Shown here one piece after another: positions 3,506 to 37,231 of a stretch of DNA of 64,000 bases. Every line of letters begins with the position of its first letter. Positions within the stretch are counted from its first letter, which is position 1. Below the pieces are notes generated by a model. It searched no databases. It was not told the DNA's origin and saw only the letters and a program-made list of their open reading frames with translations. The stretch covers positions 37,721-101,720 of the forward strand of contig CAYUVR010000001.1 in NCBI GenBank assembly GCA_964448225.1. The letters run 5' to 3'. The position numbers were made by a program, and so were the translations under genes. The DNA is from an uncultured Faecalibacterium sp. (GTDB lineage Bacteria; Bacillota; Clostridia; Oscillospirales; Acutalibacteraceae).

Positions 3506-4177
3506 ATGATAAAAACAAAAGAGCTTTTCTCTTTTGAAAAAACTCTTGCAAAAGAATATCTTTCATCTTTTGAGTATCCGTGGGAGGCTTTGGCCGGAAT
3601 TGGTGATATGATACCTCTTTTGGGAAAAAAGCTGTCAGAACAAGAATATGAACAGATTTTGCCTAAGGTGTGGGTGCACAAAACCGCAAAAATTGCATCG
3701 ACGGCATTTATCGGCGAAAATATTATCATCGGTGAAAATACCGAGGTCAGGCAAGGTGCTTTTATAAGGTCTGATGCAATTATCGGCAAAGGCTGTGTTG
3801 TCGGCAATTCAACTGAGGTTAAAAATGCCATTATTTTTGACGGAGTTCAGATTCCTCACTTCAACTATGTAGGGGATAGCATTTTAGGCTTCAAAGCTCA
3901 TCTTGGTGCAGGTGCGGTGACTTCAAACGTCAAAAGTGATAAAACAAACGTGACGGTGTTTTATGACGGTGAAAAAATAAACACTGGACTGAGAAAATTC
4001 GGTGCAATGATAGGTGACAATGCGGAAATCGGTTGCAACTGTGTGCTTAATCCGGGAACAATTATCGGCAGAAACTGCACCGTTTATCCGCTTTCTTGTG
4101 TCAGAGGAACTGTCAAAGAAAACAGCATTTATAAATCAGCAGACAGAATTGTAATTAAATCAGACAGGGGAGGATAA
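3506..4177 (+). CDS. Hexapeptide-repeat (left-handed beta-helix) acyltransferase, GlmU C-terminal-domain-like
   Basis: Repeated [LIV]-G-x-x-x-x hexapeptides (IGENIIIGENTEV, IGKGCVVGNSTEV, IGDNAEIGCNCVL). The stop is 1 nt before the glmM ATG. Confidence 0.75.
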   Translation: MIKTKELFSFEKTLAKEYLSSFEYPWEALAGIGDMIPLLGKKLSEQEYEQILPKVWVHKTAKIASTAFIGENIIIGENTEVRQGAFIRSDAIIGKGCVVGNSTEVKNAIIFDGVQIPHFNYVGDSILGFKAHLGAGAVTSNVKSDKTNVTVFYDGEKINTGLRKFGAMIGDNAEIGCNCVLNPGTIIGRNCTVYPLSCVRGTVKENSIYKSADRIVIKSDRGG

Positions 4178-4178
4178 T

Positions 4179-5552
4179 ATGGGCAAATATTTCGGCACAG
4201 ACGGTTTCAGAGGCGAAGCGGGCAAAGTTCTGACAGCAGACCACGCATATAAAATCGGGCGGTTTTTAGGTTGGTATTACAGCAGAAAAACAGACGGCAA
4301 AGCGAAAATTGTAATCGGTAAGGATACAAGGCGTTCAAGCTATATGTTCGAGTATATTCTTGCAGGCGGACTTGTTTCTTCGGGTGCAGATGCTTATCTT
4401 CTTCACGTCACAACAACACCATGCGTAGCCTATGTGACAAGGACTGATGATTTTGACTGCGGAATTATGATATCGGCAAGTCACAATCCGTTTTATGATA
4501 ACGGAATCAAGCTTCTCAACTCCAAAGGAGAAAAAATGCAAGATGAAGTAATAGATCTTATTGAAGCCTATCTCGACGGTGAGCTTAAGGTCGCAGGTGA
4601 AAAAATGCAGGAAGTTCCATTTGCACACAAGGACAGAATCGGCAGAAGTGTTGACTATGTTTCAGGCAGAAACAGATATCTCGGTTATCTTATATCCCTC
4701 GGACTTTATTCTTTCAGGGATATGAGGATCGGTCTTGACTGCGCCAACGGCAGCTCATGGTGTCTTGCAAAAAGCGTGTTTGAAGCTTTGGGTGCCGACA
4801 CATTCATCATCGGTGCTGAGCCTGACGGAACTAATATAAACAAAAGCATCGGCTCGACTCATATCGAAAAGCTGCAAACCTTTGTGAAAGAAAACGGTTT
4901 GGACGCAGGCTTCGCTTTCGACGGTGATGCAGACCGTTGCATTGCCGTTGATGAAAAAGGCAATGTTGTTGACGGAGATGCAATTTTATATATCTACGGC
5001 AAATATATGAAAGAAAAGGGCGAACTGAAAAACAACACTGTTGTTACCACGGTTATGTCCAATTTCGGCCTTTACAAGGCTTTTGATGATCTTGGTATTG
5101 ATTATGCCAGAACTCAGGTGGGGGACAAATATGTCCACGATTATATGATGAAAGAGGGTTGTATCATCGGCGGTGAACAGTCGGGACACATAATCTTTTC
5201 AAAATATGCCACAACGGGTGACGGTATTTTGACTGCGCTCAAGGTGATGGAGGTTATGTTGAGCAAAAAAATGAAGCTCAGCGAGCTTGCCGCAGGCTTT
5301 AAAGTATATCCTCAGGTACTGATAAATGTTAAGGTGGAAAACAAGAAAAGGGCTGTTGAAAATGAACAGGTGCAAAAGGCAATGAAAAAAGCTGAAAAAG
5401 ACCTGCAGGGCAGAGGGCGGATACTTCTTCGTGAATCAGGCACAGAGCCTGTTATCAGGGTTATGGTGGAATGTGACGATGAAAATCTTTGCCGTGAATG
5501 TGCCGAGAGTGTTGCACACGAAGTTGAGCAATCAATTTACAGCTTGAAATAA
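4179..5552 (+). CDS. glmM: Phosphoglucosamine mutase
   Basis: 457 aa. N-terminus GKYFGTDGFRG, active-site loop SASHNPFYDNGIK, and GEQSGH motif. Confidence 0.95.
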   Translation: MGKYFGTDGFRGEAGKVLTADHAYKIGRFLGWYYSRKTDGKAKIVIGKDTRRSSYMFEYILAGGLVSSGADAYLLHVTTTPCVAYVTRTDDFDCGIMISASHNPFYDNGIKLLNSKGEKMQDEVIDLIEAYLDGELKVAGEKMQEVPFAHKDRIGRSVDYVSGRNRYLGYLISLGLYSFRDMRIGLDCANGSSWCLAKSVFEALGADTFIIGAEPDGTNINKSIGSTHIEKLQTFVKENGLDAGFAFDGDADRCIAVDEKGNVVDGDAILYIYGKYMKEKGELKNNTVVTTVMSNFGLYKAFDDLGIDYARTQVGDKYVHDYMMKEGCIIGGEQSGHIIFSKYATTGDGILTALKVMEVMLSKKMKLSELAAGFKVYPQVLINVKVENKKRAVENEQVQKAMKKAEKDLQGRGRILLRESGTEPVIRVMVECDDENLCRECAESVAHEVEQSIYSLK

Positions 5553-32129: not shown

Positions 32130-32162
32130 AAAACTCCGACATCTGCCGTGTCGGAGTTTTTT
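32130..32162. terminator. Bidirectional terminator between the FAD gene and the XRE gene
   Basis: 12-bp stem AAAACUCCGACA/UGUCGGAGUUUU. Confidence 0.75.
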
Positions 32163-32445
32163 ATAATAGTGATGAAAGAAAATCTGCAAGAAGTCTTATC
32201 TGCTCATTATTGAGCTTTTCAATTGCATATTCAAGCTCAGAGTTTTTTTGTTCTATGTCAAAAAATTCTTTAAGGGTTATATTCAGTCCAAAACAAATGT
32301 ATTCAAGATATTCAACTGTCGGCTGTTTGTTTCCAAGCTCAATATCGCGGAGATAGCTTTGAGAAACTCCCGAAAGATTTGCTAATTTATTTACAGATAA
32401 ATTTCTTTTATTTCTGAAATACTTAATCCTTGAACCTACATCCAT
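32161..32445 (-). CDS. XRE-family helix-turn-helix regulator
   Basis: 94 aa. The sequence IKYFRNKRNLSVNKLANLSGVSQSYLRDIELGNKQP is a typical Cro/C1 HTH. Confidence 0.85.
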   Translation of the reverse strand: MDVGSRIKYFRNKRNLSVNKLANLSGVSQSYLRDIELGNKQPTVEYLEYICFGLNITLKEFFDIEQKNSELEYAIEKLNNEQIRLLADFLSSLL

Positions 32446-32540
32446 AATTTTCTCCTTTAGTCAAATGAAAATCGAGTTAAAAGGTATCTCTATTGAAATA
32501 ATTTTATCAAATAAACACGGAAATAATTACATCTAAAGTA

Positions 32541-32569
32541 TTGACAAATTATATCAAAAGAGATAAAAT
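32541..32569 (+). promoter_or_regulatory. Promoter of the zinc-ribbon operon, divergent from the XRE gene
   Basis: TTGACA (32541-32546), 17-nt spacer, TAAAAT (32564-32569). Confidence 0.6.
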
Positions 32570-32601
32570 ATTTTTACTGAAAAAATAGGAGGTATAAAAT
32601 T

Positions 32602-32862
32602 ATGTTTTTTATTTATGGCAGAAAAGAGGTATTGGAAGATGACACTTGGTCGGGTGAGCTTGAGTGTCCTAATTGCGGAGCAAAAACAAAGCACATTTTC
32701 AAATTAAGAAAATTATATCCGACAATTTTTTTCATTACAATCCCTCTTCCCCGAACACTTAAAAGACACTTGGTATGCACAAACTGCGGTGCAAACCGTG
32801 TTGTGAAAAAAGCTGAGTATGAAAGCCTTAAGCAAGGAGCTTCAAACATGATTGAACAGTAA
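32602..32862 (+). CDS. Small zinc-ribbon protein with a central hydrophobic segment
   Basis: 86 aa. CPNC...CTNC pairs flank LYPTIFFITIPLP. AGGAGG SD. Confidence 0.65.
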   Translation: MFFIYGRKEVLEDDTWSGELECPNCGAKTKHIFKLRKLYPTIFFITIPLPRTLKRHLVCTNCGANRVVKKAEYESLKQGASNMIEQ

Positions 32863-32875
32863 ATGGGTAAGAAAA

Positions 32876-33556
32876 ATGAAAAAAATAATCGCTATATTAA
32901 CAGCTTTTTTTTTAATTGTTTTATTTATGTTTTCGGCAATGGCTGAATACATATATGAAGGTATGTATATTACTGTGAAAATTCCCGATAGTTTTGAAAG
33001 ATATGAATTTGATGATGAACCTGATTATGTCACTTTTTTAGACAGCAGTAACGATAACCAAATTAATATCTCAGAAAAGTATAATTCTGATAAAATTGAT
33101 TGGGGAAATCTTTCTGCGGATGAAATAGAGATTTTGAAAGAGAAGGCAGATAGTCTTTTTATTACAGAAGGAGAAGGGTGTTATTTCACTCTTGAACCGA
33201 GAGTTTCTAAGGTGGAACATCCTTATAATGGTATTAAAGTTTATGCGGAGTATATTGATCCCGGTGTAAGCGAAAAAACAATTTCGTGTTCATATTATCT
33301 GTTTTCAACTGAACATTATGCTTATACGATATCATTTATGTCTTTTAACAGTTACACATCATGGTACGAAGAAGTTTTAGATTCTCTTATGATAGGATGG
33401 GGATATGCCGGAAGTGATAGCCGGATTACAGAAACAACTGTTTCATCAACTGATTCGAGCGGCTTTGATTTTGGAAATATAGGTAAAATTTGTTTAGTTG
33501 TTATCGTTGCTATTACTGTTATAAATTTTATAACAGGAAGAAAACAAAAAAAGTAA
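32876..33556 (+). CDS. Hypothetical exported protein with a C-terminal TM anchor
   Basis: Signal peptide MKKIIAILTAFFLIVLFMFSAMA, about 170-aa domain, Ser/Thr patch, C-terminal helix ICLVVIVAITVINFI plus a basic tail. Confidence 0.65.
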   Translation: MKKIIAILTAFFLIVLFMFSAMAEYIYEGMYITVKIPDSFERYEFDDEPDYVTFLDSSNDNQINISEKYNSDKIDWGNLSADEIEILKEKADSLFITEGEGCYFTLEPRVSKVEHPYNGIKVYAEYIDPGVSEKTISCSYYLFSTEHYAYTISFMSFNSYTSWYEEVLDSLMIGWGYAGSDSRITETTVSSTDSSGFDFGNIGKICLVVIVAITVINFITGRKQKK

Positions 33557-33566
33557 GGTTGATTAA

Positions 33567-34496
33567 ATGAAAAAAATAATCGCAGCTATTGCGGTAATTG
33601 CAGTTCTTATTGTTGGCTATAATTTGCTGTTTTTAGATTCGTCCTTTGAAAAGGATTTGAAAGAAAGTTTACCGTATGACCTGATAGCATATACTCTTTT
33701 CGATTCTTATGATTCGGAATACAAGCTTGAAGTTAAGGATTTTACGGTAGACAGGCATGTCAGAAACGGAAACTATGATACGGCAGATTGTACTATTGTT
33801 CTTGAAGATAATAATATCAAGAAAACAGTGTATGTAACTTTATATAGCACCAAATATAACAATGGTTGGCAGGTTGACAACTGGACTGAAAATCATAAAT
33901 CGGTAGTTATTCCTAAATATGCACCCGACTCATTTGAAATGGAATTAGAAGCAAGTGAAGGCGGTTATGTGAATCTGACGGAAAGATCGGAAGACTCGGA
34001 TTATTCAGACGGATTTTTCTCAAAAACATACAGCACTTATGATGTGTATGACTATGTAACTTTTACAGGCGACATTATAGTTAATGCTGAGTTTGTTGAA
34101 GAATATAATTCTGACATTTCATGTTACGGTTGGAAATATTCGTCAGATGATAATACAAGTTATGATTGGACAGTTGGCGGTATTTGGAATATGGTGTGGA
34201 ATGACGGAAACATAAATTATCTTTATAAAGCTCAGAAAACCATATTTTATATTGGTTTTAACGGAAACACTTATGGTAACGCTATATGTTATCATTACCC
34301 ATTTGGTGGAGAAGAAGCCAAAGTTTATGAAGATGACGAGTTGGCTTATAAAGTAGAGGGATACAACCCTGATACGCTTAAGCTTTCTGTCAAAAGCAAT
34401 TGCGTTGAGATGATTTTCACTTGTGACACTTGTGAAGCCTACATTGGCTCAAAGGATCTTTGGGGACTTCCGTGTCAAAACATAACACGTGAATAA
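33567..34496 (+). CDS. Hypothetical N-terminally anchored extracytoplasmic protein
   Basis: 309 aa. The first 17 nt are identical to the preceding gene (ATGAAAAAAATAATCGC). Tyr/Asn/Asp-rich, no recognised family. Confidence 0.65.
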   Translation: MKKIIAAIAVIAVLIVGYNLLFLDSSFEKDLKESLPYDLIAYTLFDSYDSEYKLEVKDFTVDRHVRNGNYDTADCTIVLEDNNIKKTVYVTLYSTKYNNGWQVDNWTENHKSVVIPKYAPDSFEMELEASEGGYVNLTERSEDSDYSDGFFSKTYSTYDVYDYVTFTGDIIVNAEFVEEYNSDISCYGWKYSSDDNTSYDWTVGGIWNMVWNDGNINYLYKAQKTIFYIGFNGNTYGNAICYHYPFGGEEAKVYEDDELAYKVEGYNPDTLKLSVKSNCVEMIFTCDTCEAYIGSKDLWGLPCQNITRE

Positions 34497-34587
34497 TAAA
34501 TAATGAGGAAAAAACATGAAGCGTCGAACTCAGGCAGTAAAGTGTAAAAACTACCCGCTGAGTTTACGCTTTGTCTCTATTATAAGA

Positions 34588-34613
34588 GGGCGGATATTAT
34601 CCGCCCTTTTTGT
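34588..34613 (+). terminator. Intrinsic terminator of the islet operon
   Basis: GGGCGGA/UCCGCCC stem followed by TTTTTGTT. Confidence 0.8.
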
Positions 34614-34738
34614 TATTCTGCACAAAAATACGGTGTTTCAAAAAGGTAACGAAAACGAAAAAAAGAGGGTAAAAAGCAGTTCATCTTTTCATTCTTTTGT
34701 TCAAATTATACAAAATAAATCAAATATGTGGAAAACTA

Positions 34739-34767
34739 TTGACATCTAATTTCGATTCATATATAAT
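34739..34767 (+). promoter_or_regulatory. Stand-alone consensus sigma-A promoter
   Basis: Perfect TTGACA (34739-34744), 17-nt spacer, TATAAT (34762-34767). It lies downstream of a terminator and no CDS follows. Confidence 0.6.
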
Positions 34768-35363
34768 AAAGGTGCAATAAAGAGAAAGGGGTGTTACCAA
34801 TGTACTGTTTAGTATAAACCGTACGATTTGATAACATTAAAATTATATCAACTCAAAAATCTTTTTTATCCAACCGTGTTAGAAATAACACACAAATTAT
34901 AATGATTATCAGATCGATTTCGGTATCGACAAAATATAAAGTCACAGAGTAAGGGGTTACTCTTCTGTGCAGTTCTTATGTGCCTTGTGAAGAAAAGGAA
35001 GGCATATAAGAGATGAAGAAAACAGAATAAAAAGTATCTCACAGCCTTATGGAGTAAGAGTTCACAGGAGAAAGTGTTTAAATCGGAGGACTTTTAAGGT
35101 TATGAGTCCTTAGAACCTGAACTTGAAAGGCAACCGGCAGCAATATCGAATATGTGGGCTTCAGAGACATTCAGAAACAGAGACATTATCTTTTTAAGTA
35201 TTTCAATAATTTCCTAAGACGAATGTAAAAAGCCAAGTGAATGATGAAGAGAAAAGATCGAATTCTGCAAACGGAACAAACAGAGATACGTAATAGAATT
35301 TAACGCAAAACAATTTGCAAAAATTCAAATTTTAAAACCAGAAAAAACTTTGTCAAAATAAAT

Positions 35364-35391
35364 CTCCGGCATAACGAAGGTTATGTCGGAG
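35364..35391. terminator. 12-bp hairpin with a GAAG loop (second terminator)
   Basis: CUCCGGCAUAAC-GAAG-GUUAUGUCGGAG. T-rich sequence follows on both strands. Confidence 0.55.
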
Positions 35392-35416
35392 AAAATTTTT
35401 ATATTAAATCGGCTGC

Positions 35417-35444
35417 AAAAAAAGGACAGAAGCTGTCCTTTTTT
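35417..35444. terminator. Bidirectional intrinsic terminator
   Basis: A7-GGACAG-AAG-CUGUCC-T6, directly after the stop of the convergent PHP gene. Confidence 0.8.
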
Positions 35445-35445
35445 A

Positions 35446-36828
35446 TCAGGCAAGTTCTGATTTAATAATTCTGTAAAGTTCAACGATGATTGTCCAGAAA
35501 CGGGTGCTCTTGAGTCTGAAAAGAATATCATCAATGAAGCTCATAAAATCTGTTACTTTTTCATAAGTCAGAGGCTCTGAGCCGTCATCAATTGCAAATG
35601 CCTGTGTCAGACATACACCGCCTTCACCGTAAAGCTCTGCTCTTACATATGTGAAGTTTTCTGCACCTTCGATTTCATCAAGGTTAAGAGTAGCTGTGCC
35701 GTCTGTGAGGTCTGCTGTTTTGATAACCTTTCCGTCTGCAATCCACTGAATTGTGTCAGCATCTGTTGTGTTAACATTGATTGTGTGACCGTCAACTTCA
35801 ACTTTTGTGAACATCGGGTAGGGGAGATTCATATTGCGAACGTCGATATCTTCGCTCGGGCCGATGATATCGTTTGCACGCAGAATTCTTGTCACTGCGA
35901 AGAATGCGCCTGTCTGCATTGTTTCCTTGATGTGTTCAACATCATTTTCTTCCATCATAAATACGCTGAAAGAGGTGTCGATGTTTTCAAGGTCATGAGC
36001 ATCGTTGTTGCTGAAGCCGATGACATTTTTGCCATAGGGGAGAGTTTCCATCAGAAGGTTGTCCCAAAGGATACGGTCATAGGGAGTTGTGCTGTTTCTG
36101 TCGTTGAAAACTTCAATACCGAGACAAGTGTCATATCTGAGAAGAAGGTCAGCGAAAAATTCAACATTTTCAGGGTCACTTACTGCTGCAATGTTTTTGT
36201 TGCTTTCAAGCCAGTCGCCGGGGTGGTTGATGTGTGAAAGACCGCCGTTTTCTTCGATGAATGCAATAGCCTGTTCATATCCGTTTTCTGAACCGCCGAA
36301 TCCGTTACCAACGCCTTCGGGAAGGAAGAAGCCGTTAACGTGGCTCTTTGTGAGGGTGAGGTTGTTGAGTTCATTTGCGCCTGTTACGCAAACCATTTTT
36401 TCACCTCTTACAGTACCGTCATAAAGAGGATATGTACCGGTTGTGATGCCTTCGTATTCTTCGTCTGTGAGGTGTGCAACGGTTTTGCCAGTAAGCTTCT
36501 GATAAGCATAAAGGGCGAGAGTAGGCTGTTCTCTGTTCCATTCAACACCTGTGATACCGTGGTCAGAGTTTGCAAGGAAGGTATAGCCCTGATTGTAATA
36601 CTCTTTGATCATTGTTGCAAGGTCAACATCAGCATCGCTGTAGGTTGAATGTGAATGAAGGTCGCCCTTGTATGCGCCCCAGGCATTTTCGCCTTCCCAC
36701 ACAACATCGTCATAGCAGGAAAGGATTGTGTAGTCCTTTTCGTCAGCTGCAAAAGCAAAAGCAGAGCAACAGAACAGGAGTACACCGCAAAGAAGCACGC
36801 TGAGAATTCTTTTGGTTGTTTTCTTCAT
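35446..36828 (-). CDS. Secreted PHP-domain metal-dependent phosphoesterase (CehA/McbA-like)
   Basis: Signal peptide ...LLFCCSAFAFA, then GDLHSHSTYSD and NSDHG motifs typical of the PHP fold. 460 aa. Confidence 0.7.
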   Translation of the reverse strand: MKKTTKRILSVLLCGVLLFCCSAFAFAADEKDYTILSCYDDVVWEGENAWGAYKGDLHSHSTYSDADVDLATMIKEYYNQGYTFLANSDHGITGVEWNREQPTLALYAYQKLTGKTVAHLTDEEYEGITTGTYPLYDGTVRGEKMVCVTGANELNNLTLTKSHVNGFFLPEGVGNGFGGSENGYEQAIAFIEENGGLSHINHPGDWLESNKNIAAVSDPENVEFFADLLLRYDTCLGIEVFNDRNSTTPYDRILWDNLLMETLPYGKNVIGFSNNDAHDLENIDTSFSVFMMEENDVEHIKETMQTGAFFAVTRILRANDIIGPSEDIDVRNMNLPYPMFTKVEVDGHTINVNTTDADTIQWIADGKVIKTADLTDGTATLNLDEIEGAENFTYVRAELYGEGGVCLTQAFAIDDGSEPLTYEKVTDFMSFIDDILFRLKSTRFWTIIVELYRIIKSELA

Positions 36829-36989: not shown

Positions 36990-37231
36990 TTATAAATATA
37001 ATAAAAGACCGTGACGAAAGAAACCCCTTTGCCGTCTTTTCAGAGAGAGTGAGTCTCAGGCTGTAAGCTCACTTAAGCACGAATAAGAGTGGTCGCTGCT
37101 TTCAAAGTCGCTCCCGAAAGGGCAGCCGTATGACTTGCGTTAAAAGTTATTAAGAGTGGTGCTTTATGCACAATTCGGGTGGTACCGTGGATTATTTCAC
37201 CCCGAAATGTGTGTGGCACTTTATTTTTTTT
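36990..37231 (+). promoter_or_regulatory. T-box riboswitch leader (Ala)
   Basis: Stem I AGAGAGAG region. Ala codons GCA/GCC at 37122-37127 in the specifier region. T-box sequence AATTCGGGTGGTACCGTGG (37172-37190). Long terminator helix 37159-37219 followed by TTTATTTTTTTT. Confidence 0.85.

Follow-up and report, generated by a model that had tools for sequence, protein, structure and literature searches.

The interval 34739-35401 (+ strand) of a 64,000-nucleotide (nt) stretch of contig CAYUVR010000001.1, from an uncultured Faecalibacterium sp., very probably corresponds to an independent gene for a structured non-coding RNA (ncRNA) of ~630 nt that belongs to an uncatalogued family, the RNAs of its relatives being predicted to measure 515-630 nt. 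All positions refer to this stretch, hereafter called the window. This reading, which derives from sequence comparison, relies on the features that are generally expected from a structured ncRNA gene: a promoter and a terminator of its own, the lack of a conserved open reading frame (ORF), compensatory changes in the paired regions and a pairing pattern that is specific to one strand. A preliminary description of the region had proposed a large structured ncRNA that it could not match to OLE, ROOL or GOLLD, and the homologues that we collected, their covariation and the lack of any match in Rfam 15 support that proposal. To our knowledge, few bacterial structured RNAs longer than ~500 nt lack an assigned function (OLE, ROOL and GOLLD plus a handful of others), and the earlier ones each opened new biology, such as membrane ribonucleoproteins or RNA-only cages.

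A predicted transcription unit without conserved coding capacity

The element starts with a sigma-70-type promoter (34739..34767, + strand) made up of TTGACA (34739-44), a 17 nt spacer and TATAAT (34762-67), which matches the consensus at 12/12 positions. The promoter scan recovered this site as it had been described and found no other perfect TTGACA-17-TATAAT on either strand of the 64 kb, where shuffled sequences predict 0.01 copies. The promoter is conserved in 11/11 of the homologues that have it on their contig, as TTGAC[A/T] and TATAAT separated by 17 nt (18 in locus L091), and transcription is predicted to start at ~34774. Immediately 5' of the -35 box, the A/T-rich block AAATATGT[G/T][G/A]AAAACTA (34716..34738, + strand) was nearly invariant in the first alignment of six sequences and is possibly an UP element. 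Since a consensus promoter and a conserved A/T-rich upstream block occur together, expression is probably high and constitutive.

The boundaries of the unit are also marked by terminators. Upstream, a terminator followed by a T-run was found at 34584-34610, in line with the claim that the element is a transcription unit of its own beginning ~125 nt past the preceding terminator. Downstream, the terminator scan identified an intrinsic terminator (35363..35401, + strand) with a 13 bp stem (UCUCCGGCAUAAC/GUUAUGUCGGAGA) and a U-tract. This stem is kept in all full-length homologues, in which six of its pairs are altered on both sides and several are G·U. It is followed by a bidirectional terminator (35417..35444; inverted repeat I1, AAAAAAGGACAG-AAG-CUGUCCUUUUUU) that is common to the RNA and to a convergent gene for a protein of 460 amino acids (aa). 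The transcript end had been placed at this second terminator, which does exist, but the RNA most likely ends at ~35400, and thus measures ~630 nt, because 35363-35392 already forms a terminator-like hairpin with a T-run. As had been argued from the orientation of the next gene, the RNA is not a 5' untranslated region, since two terminators and then the convergent gene come after it.

A promoter-like sequence on the minus strand (TTGACA-16-TAAAAT, 35356-35329) is directed back into the RNA gene; it was rejected as a promoter, being probably a chance match that is not conserved in the relatives. The motif GCACAAAAA(A), at 34618-34626 in the window, also occurs in L001, L085, L087 and L090 and, in a weaker form, in L091. 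It sits ~110-160 nt upstream of the -35 box of the RNA and is followed in several relatives by a terminator-like hairpin.

Apart from a 5-codon ORF discussed below, no ORF on either strand is conserved in position, frame or sequence across the homologues. The longest ORF of the interval 34750-35325, reported to lack any of at least 60 codons, is a GTG-initiated one of 58 aa on the - strand. The mini-ORFs that had been noted at the ATGs of 34800 (MYCLV*), 35013 (MKKTE*) and 35102 (MSP*) are all present, MKKTE and MSP not being conserved among homologues. No relative carries an intact ORF here, and the gene calls of the source assemblies leave a gap of 820-1100 nt. The conserved blocks are separated by A-rich sequence that is free to diverge and whose indels do not come in multiples of three. 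Judging from these alignments, the region is not a decayed gene. The preliminary description had also pointed to a purine asymmetry: its two hand-counted lines do contain 71.7% and 73.3% purines, but the asymmetry is milder than was implied for the whole transcript, which is 58.9% purine (A 40%).

Homologous loci and sequence constraint

The homologues were gathered through the neighbouring gene. A scan of genome collections with the 460-aa protein provided 80 loci, nearly all from metagenome-assembled genomes (MAGs) labelled Acutalibacteraceae or "Clostridia bacterium" and derived from ruminant, deer and other guts. BLASTN and nhmmer detected the intergenic element in the closest loci only, and further loci were added by exact-protein look-ups. 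The element is present in 14 of the fetched loci which, after removal of three duplicates (L082, L086, L088), leave 11 relatives besides the window. These correspond to ~9 distinct sequences, and their neighbouring protein is 74-93% identical to that of the window. The typical order in the relatives is alaS, the 460-aa gene, a gap of 820-1100 nt without any called gene, and a gene for a flavin adenine dinucleotide (FAD)-dependent protein.

The arrangement of L091 is peculiar. Its element (4008-4361, + strand) lies on the strand of the 460-aa gene and downstream of it, which is inverted with respect to all other loci; the upstream gene context differs (Pribosyltran) and the contig ends within the element. 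L092 and L093 have the upstream context of L091, and the element is absent from the 300-400 nt of contig available past their gene.

Comparison of these loci reveals strongly constrained blocks. A 57-nt block at the 5' end, AGAAAGG[G/A]GUGUUACCAAUGUACUGUUUA-NUN-UAAACCGUA[C/U]GAUUUGAUAACAU, is invariant across the homologues outside a triloop, except that L085/L086 have G·U in place of one G-C pair and that L001 and L091 carry one change each. The sequence UUAUCAGAUCG is conserved in 12/12 sequences, L001 alone having a change at the base that follows it (A). GUAUC never varies; GUAUCUC, which extends it, is found everywhere except in L087 (GUAUCUU) and L091 (GUAUCCC). Further conserved blocks are AGC/GGC, AAGGGCA, GAGAUA[C/U] and the terminator stem. 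At 4-fold degenerate sites, the adjacent gene shows an identity of only 51-70% to the window, and the invariant blocks are therefore under strong purifying selection. Two purine-rich stretches are conserved in the majority of the homologues: the block GAUGAAGAAAACA (35012..35024, + strand), predicted to be single-stranded, retains GAAGAAA(AC) in most of them, with L085, L086 and L087 having diverged, and the tract GAAGAGAAAAGAU (35245..35258, + strand) appears as AGA[G/A]AAAAG in most of them.

Alternative pairings at the 5' end

The 57-nt block includes a stretch that resembles a Shine-Dalgarno (SD) element, AAAGGGG (34785..34791, + strand; AAAGGAG in L091), at 12-18 nt from the predicted start of the RNA and 8 nt before an AUG, after which there is only a 5-codon ORF (MYCLV*, ATG TAC TGT TTA GTA TAA; 34800..34817, + strand). 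Across the 12 homologues, codon 5 alone varies (GTA, ATG, GTT) and codons 1-4 show no synonymous change. The variable bases of codon 5 are precisely the triloop of a hairpin, and these two observations suggest that the constraint acts on the RNA and not on the peptide. This hairpin, P1 (GUACUGUUUA, triloop, UAAACCGUAC; 34802..34824, + strand), predicted by RNAalifold, has 9 bp and one U·C mismatch. It is 100% paired in the 12 sequences, with 8/9 pairs invariant and one changed from G-C to G·U.

Two helices compete around P1. Helix H-i (34791..34837, + strand), which encloses P1, pairs GUGUUA.CCA (34791-99) with UUG.AUAACAU (34828-37); it corresponds to the GUGUUA/UAACAU pairing of the preliminary description and is the choice of minimum free energy (MFE) in 7/12 homologues. 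The long-range helix H-ii (34825..34915, + strand), found by RNAalifold, pairs GAUUUGAUAAC (34825-35) with G-N-UUAUCAGAUC (34904-15), an arm located ~70 nt downstream. Both arms of H-ii are invariant and its 9/9 pairs can form in 12/12 sequences. H-i and H-ii are mutually exclusive and all three strands involved are invariant. The energy gap between them ranges from 0 to 6.4 kcal/mol, and is <=2 in 8/12 homologues. If the strands were locked into two alternative pairings, their total invariance would be explained.

Two further hairpins accompany H-ii. P2 (GUGUUA-GAAA-UAACAC; 34876..34891, + strand) lies inside H-ii and has a lineage-specific sequence: a hairpin exists at this position in every homologue, each time with a different sequence, and 4/5 pairs are altered on both sides in an alignment fitted to a model of the structure. 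P3 (UCGAU-UUCGGU-AUCGA; 34914..34929, + strand) comes immediately 3' of H-ii and is 98% paired in the 12 sequences, its 5' arm being invariant while its loop and 3' arm vary.

Fold of the downstream domains

Folding energy alone does not allow a choice of strand (z-scores of -5.6 and -5.2 for the + and - strands, respectively), and it is the comparison of the homologues that informs on the rest of the fold. All the hairpins listed in the preliminary description exist, and the compensatory changes that it had called for were found in the central domain, the terminator, P2, P4 and Pg. The conservation of the individual hairpins is more nuanced. The variable region B (34943..35012, + strand) is made up of two hairpins, at 34943-34969 (with a GGGG loop) and 34973-35012 (14-15 bp). 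A hairpin occupies the position 34943-35010 in every homologue, but the two hairpins of the window are lineage-specific: their sequence is common to L001 only, and the other lineages have one or two different hairpins at this place (for instance, UAUCC/GGAUA in L022 and GUCC/GGAC in L002).

The central and 3' domains are closed by a long-range helix, P4, which spans ~250 nt (35034..35289, + strand) and pairs GUAUCUC (35034-40) with GAGAUAC (35283-89). Both arms are present in 11/11 full-length homologues; L087 has GUAUCUUU/AAAGAUAC, in which C-G is replaced by U-A, a G·U pair occurs in L001 and L003, and one position is mismatched in L085. P4 appears broken in one alignment analysis because MAFFT moved its 3' arm by two columns. 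RNAalifold had proposed GGGGUG as the partner of GUAUCUC, a pairing which was dropped in favor of GUAUCUC/GAGAUAC, since the latter has a compensatory change. Enforcing P1, H-ii and P4 together costs 2 kcal/mol with respect to the unconstrained MFE.

The central domain (35044..35131, + strand) comprises Pa (GCCUU, 35044-48/AAGGC, 35127-31), Pc (AGAGUUC, 35057-63/GAACCU, 35113-18) and an inner hairpin AGGACU/AGUCCU (35085-35110, + strand). A covariance model (R1) of the central junction (Pa, Pc, Pd, Pe) was built from six sequences, and all the homologues were re-aligned to it (alignment A5). In this domain, 94.5% of the cells are paired, against 83.5% in shuffled alignments, and 15 pairs are altered on both sides, a number equalled in 0/500 shuffles and reaching at most 5 in controls where the partners were slid. 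Such changes are seen, for example, in Pc (CAGUUC/GAACUG, AAGCUC/GAGCUU, CGGUUC/GAAUCG, GAACUC/GAGUUU) and in Pe (CUCAGG/CCUGAG, UCUGAG/CUCAGA, UUCAAG/CUUGAA). The Pd loop GAAGAAG is retained even with a different stem, in L091. Most homologues have two inner hairpins, Pd and Pe, of which the window and L001 keep one. The domain contains 13 G·U cells and one A·C cell; this ratio, together with the orientation of the promoter and the terminator, indicates that the + strand is the RNA.

Further downstream, a two-tier hairpin (35157..35234, + strand) is formed by Pg (GGCUU, 35157-61/AAGCC, 35230-34) and Ph (ACAUUC, 35167-72/GAAUGU, 35221-26). It is found in all homologues, and the sequence of Ph differs everywhere. 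Pg occurs as GGCA/UGCC, as AGCA/UGCU in L087 and as GGCUU/AAGCC in the window, with G-C to A-U and A-U to U-A changes. The last hairpin before the terminator, GAAUUU..GCAAA-ACAA-UUUGC..AAAUUC (35296..35326, + strand), is conserved with L001 only; the other lineages are A-rich at this site, some of them with a different hairpin.

As far as it has been seen, the RNA family seems limited to one narrow Acutalibacteraceae (Clostridia) clade of herbivore guts, roughly at the level of a genus. In loci where the 460-aa protein is <=73% identical, the element is absent next to the gene and other genes lie directly downstream. Model R1 found no additional member among the other 80 loci, BLASTN against phages and plasmids gave no match, and an exact search for the invariant 21-mer had 0 matches in JGI metagenomes and 0 in viral contigs. 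A gapped pattern of H-ii matched 54 metagenome sequences, all of which turned out to be chance matches after profile screening. The window itself contains no second copy of the element.

Neighbouring genes

Pfam annotation identifies, upstream of the RNA, the gene for the FAD-dependent protein (which extends to 32114), a helix-turn-helix (HTH) regulator, a Zn-ribbon protein and two signal-peptide proteins without Pfam match. Relatives pass from the FAD-dependent gene almost directly to the RNA promoter, and the window has a ~2.4 kb insert at 32161-34496. This insert carries the HTH_3 regulator (32161-32445, - strand), the Zn-ribbon protein (32602-32862) and the two signal-peptide/transmembrane proteins (32852-33556 and 33567-34496). 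Since it separates the FAD gene from the element, the RNA locus is independent of read-through from that gene. An ORF of 77 aa starting with ATG (34516-34749, + strand) begins right after the 309-aa gene and crosses the terminator and the -35 box; it is most likely not a gene, as it spans the upstream terminator and has no Pfam match.

On the other side, the convergent gene (35446-36828, - strand) encodes a secreted 460-aa protein without Pfam match, of which uncultured Clostridia have more than 1400 homologues. It carries the motifs HSHS..SD, NSDHG and HINHPG and bears a weak, PHP-like similarity to PolX (E = 0.12). The GC content of this gene is 44-50%, against ~30% in the flanking intergenic and ncRNA sequence. 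The next gene beyond is alaS, which is preceded by a T-box leader (37002-37207, + strand; 69.5 bits, E = 3.8e-15) that is found in relatives too. The default Rfam scan missed this leader because its score is lower than the Rfam gathering score of 93. The listed start of the alaS ORF (37166) falls inside the leader, so that the true start is probably later. ARAGORN predicts neither a tRNA nor a tmRNA in the 64 kb.

Possible function and alternative explanations

Several scenarios may explain what such an RNA does. The best overall explanation, in which an RNA of a new family is combined with a mechanism for its action, seems somewhat more probable than its alternatives taken together. The RNA would be strongly transcribed and would act in trans, as a scaffold or a sponge. 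Contact would be made through purine-rich elements that are conserved and exposed, namely the loops GAAGAAG and AGGG, the junction AAGGAGUAA and the two tracts GAAGAAAAC and AGAGAAAAG; a protein or a pyrimidine-rich RNA could be their ligand. The 5' module would be a ribosome-binding element, with a 30S subunit or a ribosome sitting on the SD and the 5-codon ORF. In Bacillota, SD-like elements near the 5' end are known to stabilise RNAs against RNase J1, as the STAB-SD of cry3A (PMC4113751) and the hbs mRNA (PMC5737220) do, and by analogy with STAB-SD a ribosome on the 5' module might block the attack of 5'-exonucleases. In addition, the ribosome would melt H-i and P1; because the SD and the AUG overlap these two structures, its occupancy would free GAUUUGAUAAC, which could then pair with the downstream UUAUCAGAUC (H-ii) and set the global fold. 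A 5' module acting as stabiliser or switch on a platform that works in trans is thus offered tentatively, as a proposal that may well turn out to be wrong. Stronger still, and rather unlikely, would be the idea that the RNA is the founding member of a new large ncRNA class, its invariant 5' module working as a bistable switch gated by the ribosome: a 30S subunit or a ribosome on the SD and the 5-codon ORF would select one of the two mutually exclusive helices. In that case, the translational capacity of the cell would be directly coupled to the function of an ncRNA, and the choice of a helix would set the global fold, the stability or the activity of an RNA of ~600 nt.

A number of observations weigh against these proposals. 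The transcript is predicted, and the trans-acting and ribosome-switch steps are conjectural. The best-conserved helices (P1, H-i, H-ii and P3) never vary, and covariation does not test them. The alignments of the central domain and P2 in which covariation was measured had been fitted to the proposed structure, which favors that structure; the slid controls and the raw sequences still show true compensation in the central domain. The window copy has lost one of the inner hairpins, and parts of the fold are therefore dispensable. All the homologues were fetched through one protein gene, so that their distribution and linkage are biased by the design of the search, and they amount to only ~9 distinct sequences. 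The loops do not present a many-fold repeated GGA motif of the kind used by CsrB/RsmZ-type sponges, and no repeated motif of the CsrA or Hfq type is multi-copy either; CGGA occurs ~3 times per RNA, and k-mer enrichment reflects homologous blocks only. Finally, no gene for a partner protein is evident and no RNA target was identified. When the RNA was compared by RNAduplex with the 5' region of the 460-aa gene, all that came out were long duplexes without meaning. In L004 and L022, a 12-nt stretch upstream of the -35 box of that gene, GUUUCUUCUUCA, matches the complement of UGAAGAAGAAAU in the Pd loop region, probably by coincidence since the stretch is absent from the window.

The 5' module also invites other interpretations. 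One possibility is that the element is a cis-acting leader-peptide attenuator, in which the SD, MYCLV and the alternative hairpins control the read-through of the two terminators; antisense transcription would then enter the convergent 460-aa gene and act by interference or antisense control. The anatomy of erm- and cat-type attenuators likewise combines an SD with a very short ORF and with hairpins that exclude each other, the next gene is convergent, and the RNA is linked to the 460-aa gene in all the loci examined. Nevertheless, this linkage is an artifact of ascertainment, because all loci were fetched via that protein, and antisense control is impossible in L091, where the element follows the gene on the same strand. 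Moreover, two strong terminators stand between the RNA and the gene, and an attenuator would have no need for ~550 nt of conserved, covarying structure in front of them, which makes this explanation improbable. It is even harder to accept that the RNA is a small-peptide mRNA, functional through the pentapeptide MYCL(V/M) or through other micro-peptides. The SD is strong and ideally spaced, and the AUG, four invariant codons and a stop are found in 12/12 homologues. Yet codons 1-4 lack synonymous variation where nearby neutral sites have diverged by 30-49%, the variable bases are confined to the hairpin triloop, as fits a constraint at the RNA level, and the candidates MKKTE and MSP are not conserved; the ~550 nt of conserved structure downstream would also be left unexplained.

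The remaining alternatives deny that the conserved entity is a new RNA. Inverted repeats can function as DNA and several of the conserved blocks are partly palindromic (GATCGA, GTAC), so that protein-binding palindromes or a recombination or replication site could be imagined. That would hardly account for helices in which G·U is accepted and A·C is not (13 to 1), a pattern that is meaningful for a + strand RNA only, nor for pairings that extend over ~80 nt (H-ii) and ~250 nt (P4), the frame of promoter and terminator and a strand-asymmetric base composition; we thus regard a DNA-level element as very improbable. We give still less credit to a non-functional spacer or a decayed gene with a promoter match and hairpins arisen by chance. 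AT-rich intergenic DNA is rich in promoter-like sites and hairpins and the folding z-scores of both strands are similar, but only 0.01 perfect promoters would be expected and the one observed is retained wherever the contig of a homologue includes it, invariant blocks stand amid saturated flanks, compensatory changes are present, and neither an ORF remnant nor frame conservation is found. Equally remote is the idea of a highly diverged member of a known large family (OLE, ROOL, GOLLD, raiA, HEARO, RNAIII or others). The size (~0.5-0.65 kb), the Bacillota host and the gut or rumen origin do resemble those of OLE and ROOL (in part after PMC12286853). Nonetheless, Rfam 15 was scanned with the whole window at the gathering score, with 34450-35550 to E = 10 and with seven homologous loci to E = 0.5, and no family matched the element, including OLE, ROOL, GOLLD, raiA, HEARO, RNAIII, 6S, RNase P and SRP. 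The comparison with OLE, ROOL, GOLLD, raiA and HEARO models recommended in the preliminary description thus leaves the element unassigned in the window and in the seven loci. The only RNA to appear in these scans was the neighbouring alaS T-box, detected in the seven homologous loci as well, and no tRNA or tmRNA lies nearby. The ncRNA gene of an uncatalogued family consequently stays the preferred reading. It would provide an annotation for the 820-1100 nt "empty" gap of many Acutalibacteraceae MAGs, and its 5' module would offer a handle on the effect of ribosome binding on the fold or stability of an ncRNA; its narrow distribution so far limits its immediate importance.

Relation to described RNAs

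The large RNAs of Bacillota are the most obvious term of comparison. Like OLE, ROOL and GOLLD, the predicted RNA would be a stand-alone ncRNA gene of at least ~0.6 kb from Bacillota and gut or rumen organisms, with many helices, long-range pairings and conserved junction nucleotides (in part after PMC12286853). In contrast to them, it has a far narrower range, evolves faster, loses whole hairpins and carries a 5' module that looks like a ribosome-binding site. None of the three Rfam scans gave a covariance-model match to OLE (RF01071), ROOL (RF03087) or GOLLD (RF01998). The oapA/oapB/oapC association of OLE was not seen in the immediate neighbourhood, which consists of the FAD-dependent, the 460-aa secreted PHP-like and the alaS genes. 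ROOL is often found near tRNA clusters or in prophages; here, no tRNA or tmRNA is present in the window and no similarity to phage or viral collections was found. GOLLD is larger, at ~0.8 kb, than the ~0.52-0.63 kb of this family. Homo-oligomeric assemblies have been seen for ROOL, GOLLD and OLE.

The 5' module recalls regulatory elements of another kind. The STAB-SD of Bacillus thuringiensis cry3A similarly has an SD-like GAAAGG[G/A]G near the 5' end with no real gene after it, and the sequence seen here corresponds to that definition, being 5'-proximal, complementary to the 3' end of the 16S rRNA and not followed by a real gene (PMC4113751). It differs from STAB-SD in that the SD precedes an AUG, four codons and a stop, all of them within a hairpin and two competing helices, and in that the RNA that follows does not code for protein. 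Leader-peptide attenuators (erm, cat, ABC-F) likewise have a very short ORF, a strong SD and overlapping alternative hairpins, and the SD and 5-codon ORF indeed overlap H-i and P1. Unlike in attenuators, no terminator lies directly past the switch, where ~550 nt of structured RNA are found, and no conserved ORF on the same strand precedes the terminators as a regulated gene. As a class, CsrB/RsmZ-type sponges are also abundant stand-alone RNAs, with binding motifs displayed in the loops of their many hairpins.

The closest parallel in anatomy may be RNAIII of Staphylococcus aureus, which measures 514 nt, encodes the 26-aa delta-haemolysin and acts on SD sequences through C-rich loops. Both RNAs are ~0.5 kb long, with their own promoter and terminator, about a dozen hairpins, a 5'-proximal SD and small ORF, a narrow clade and conserved loops among variable stems. 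They differ in the ORF, which has 5 codons here, in the conserved loops, which are purine-rich (GAAGAAG, AGGG), and in the lack of an adjoining agr-like locus. The RNAIII model does not match, there is no hld-like ORF (the only conserved ORF being the 5-codon one) and the loops are not C-rich. In kind, the RNA predicted here is thus comparable to the large structured orphan RNAs known from Bacillota, and its anatomy recalls RNAIII-type multi-hairpin regulators; the new feature would be the combination of a conserved multi-domain fold with an SD/mini-ORF module held in two competing helices.

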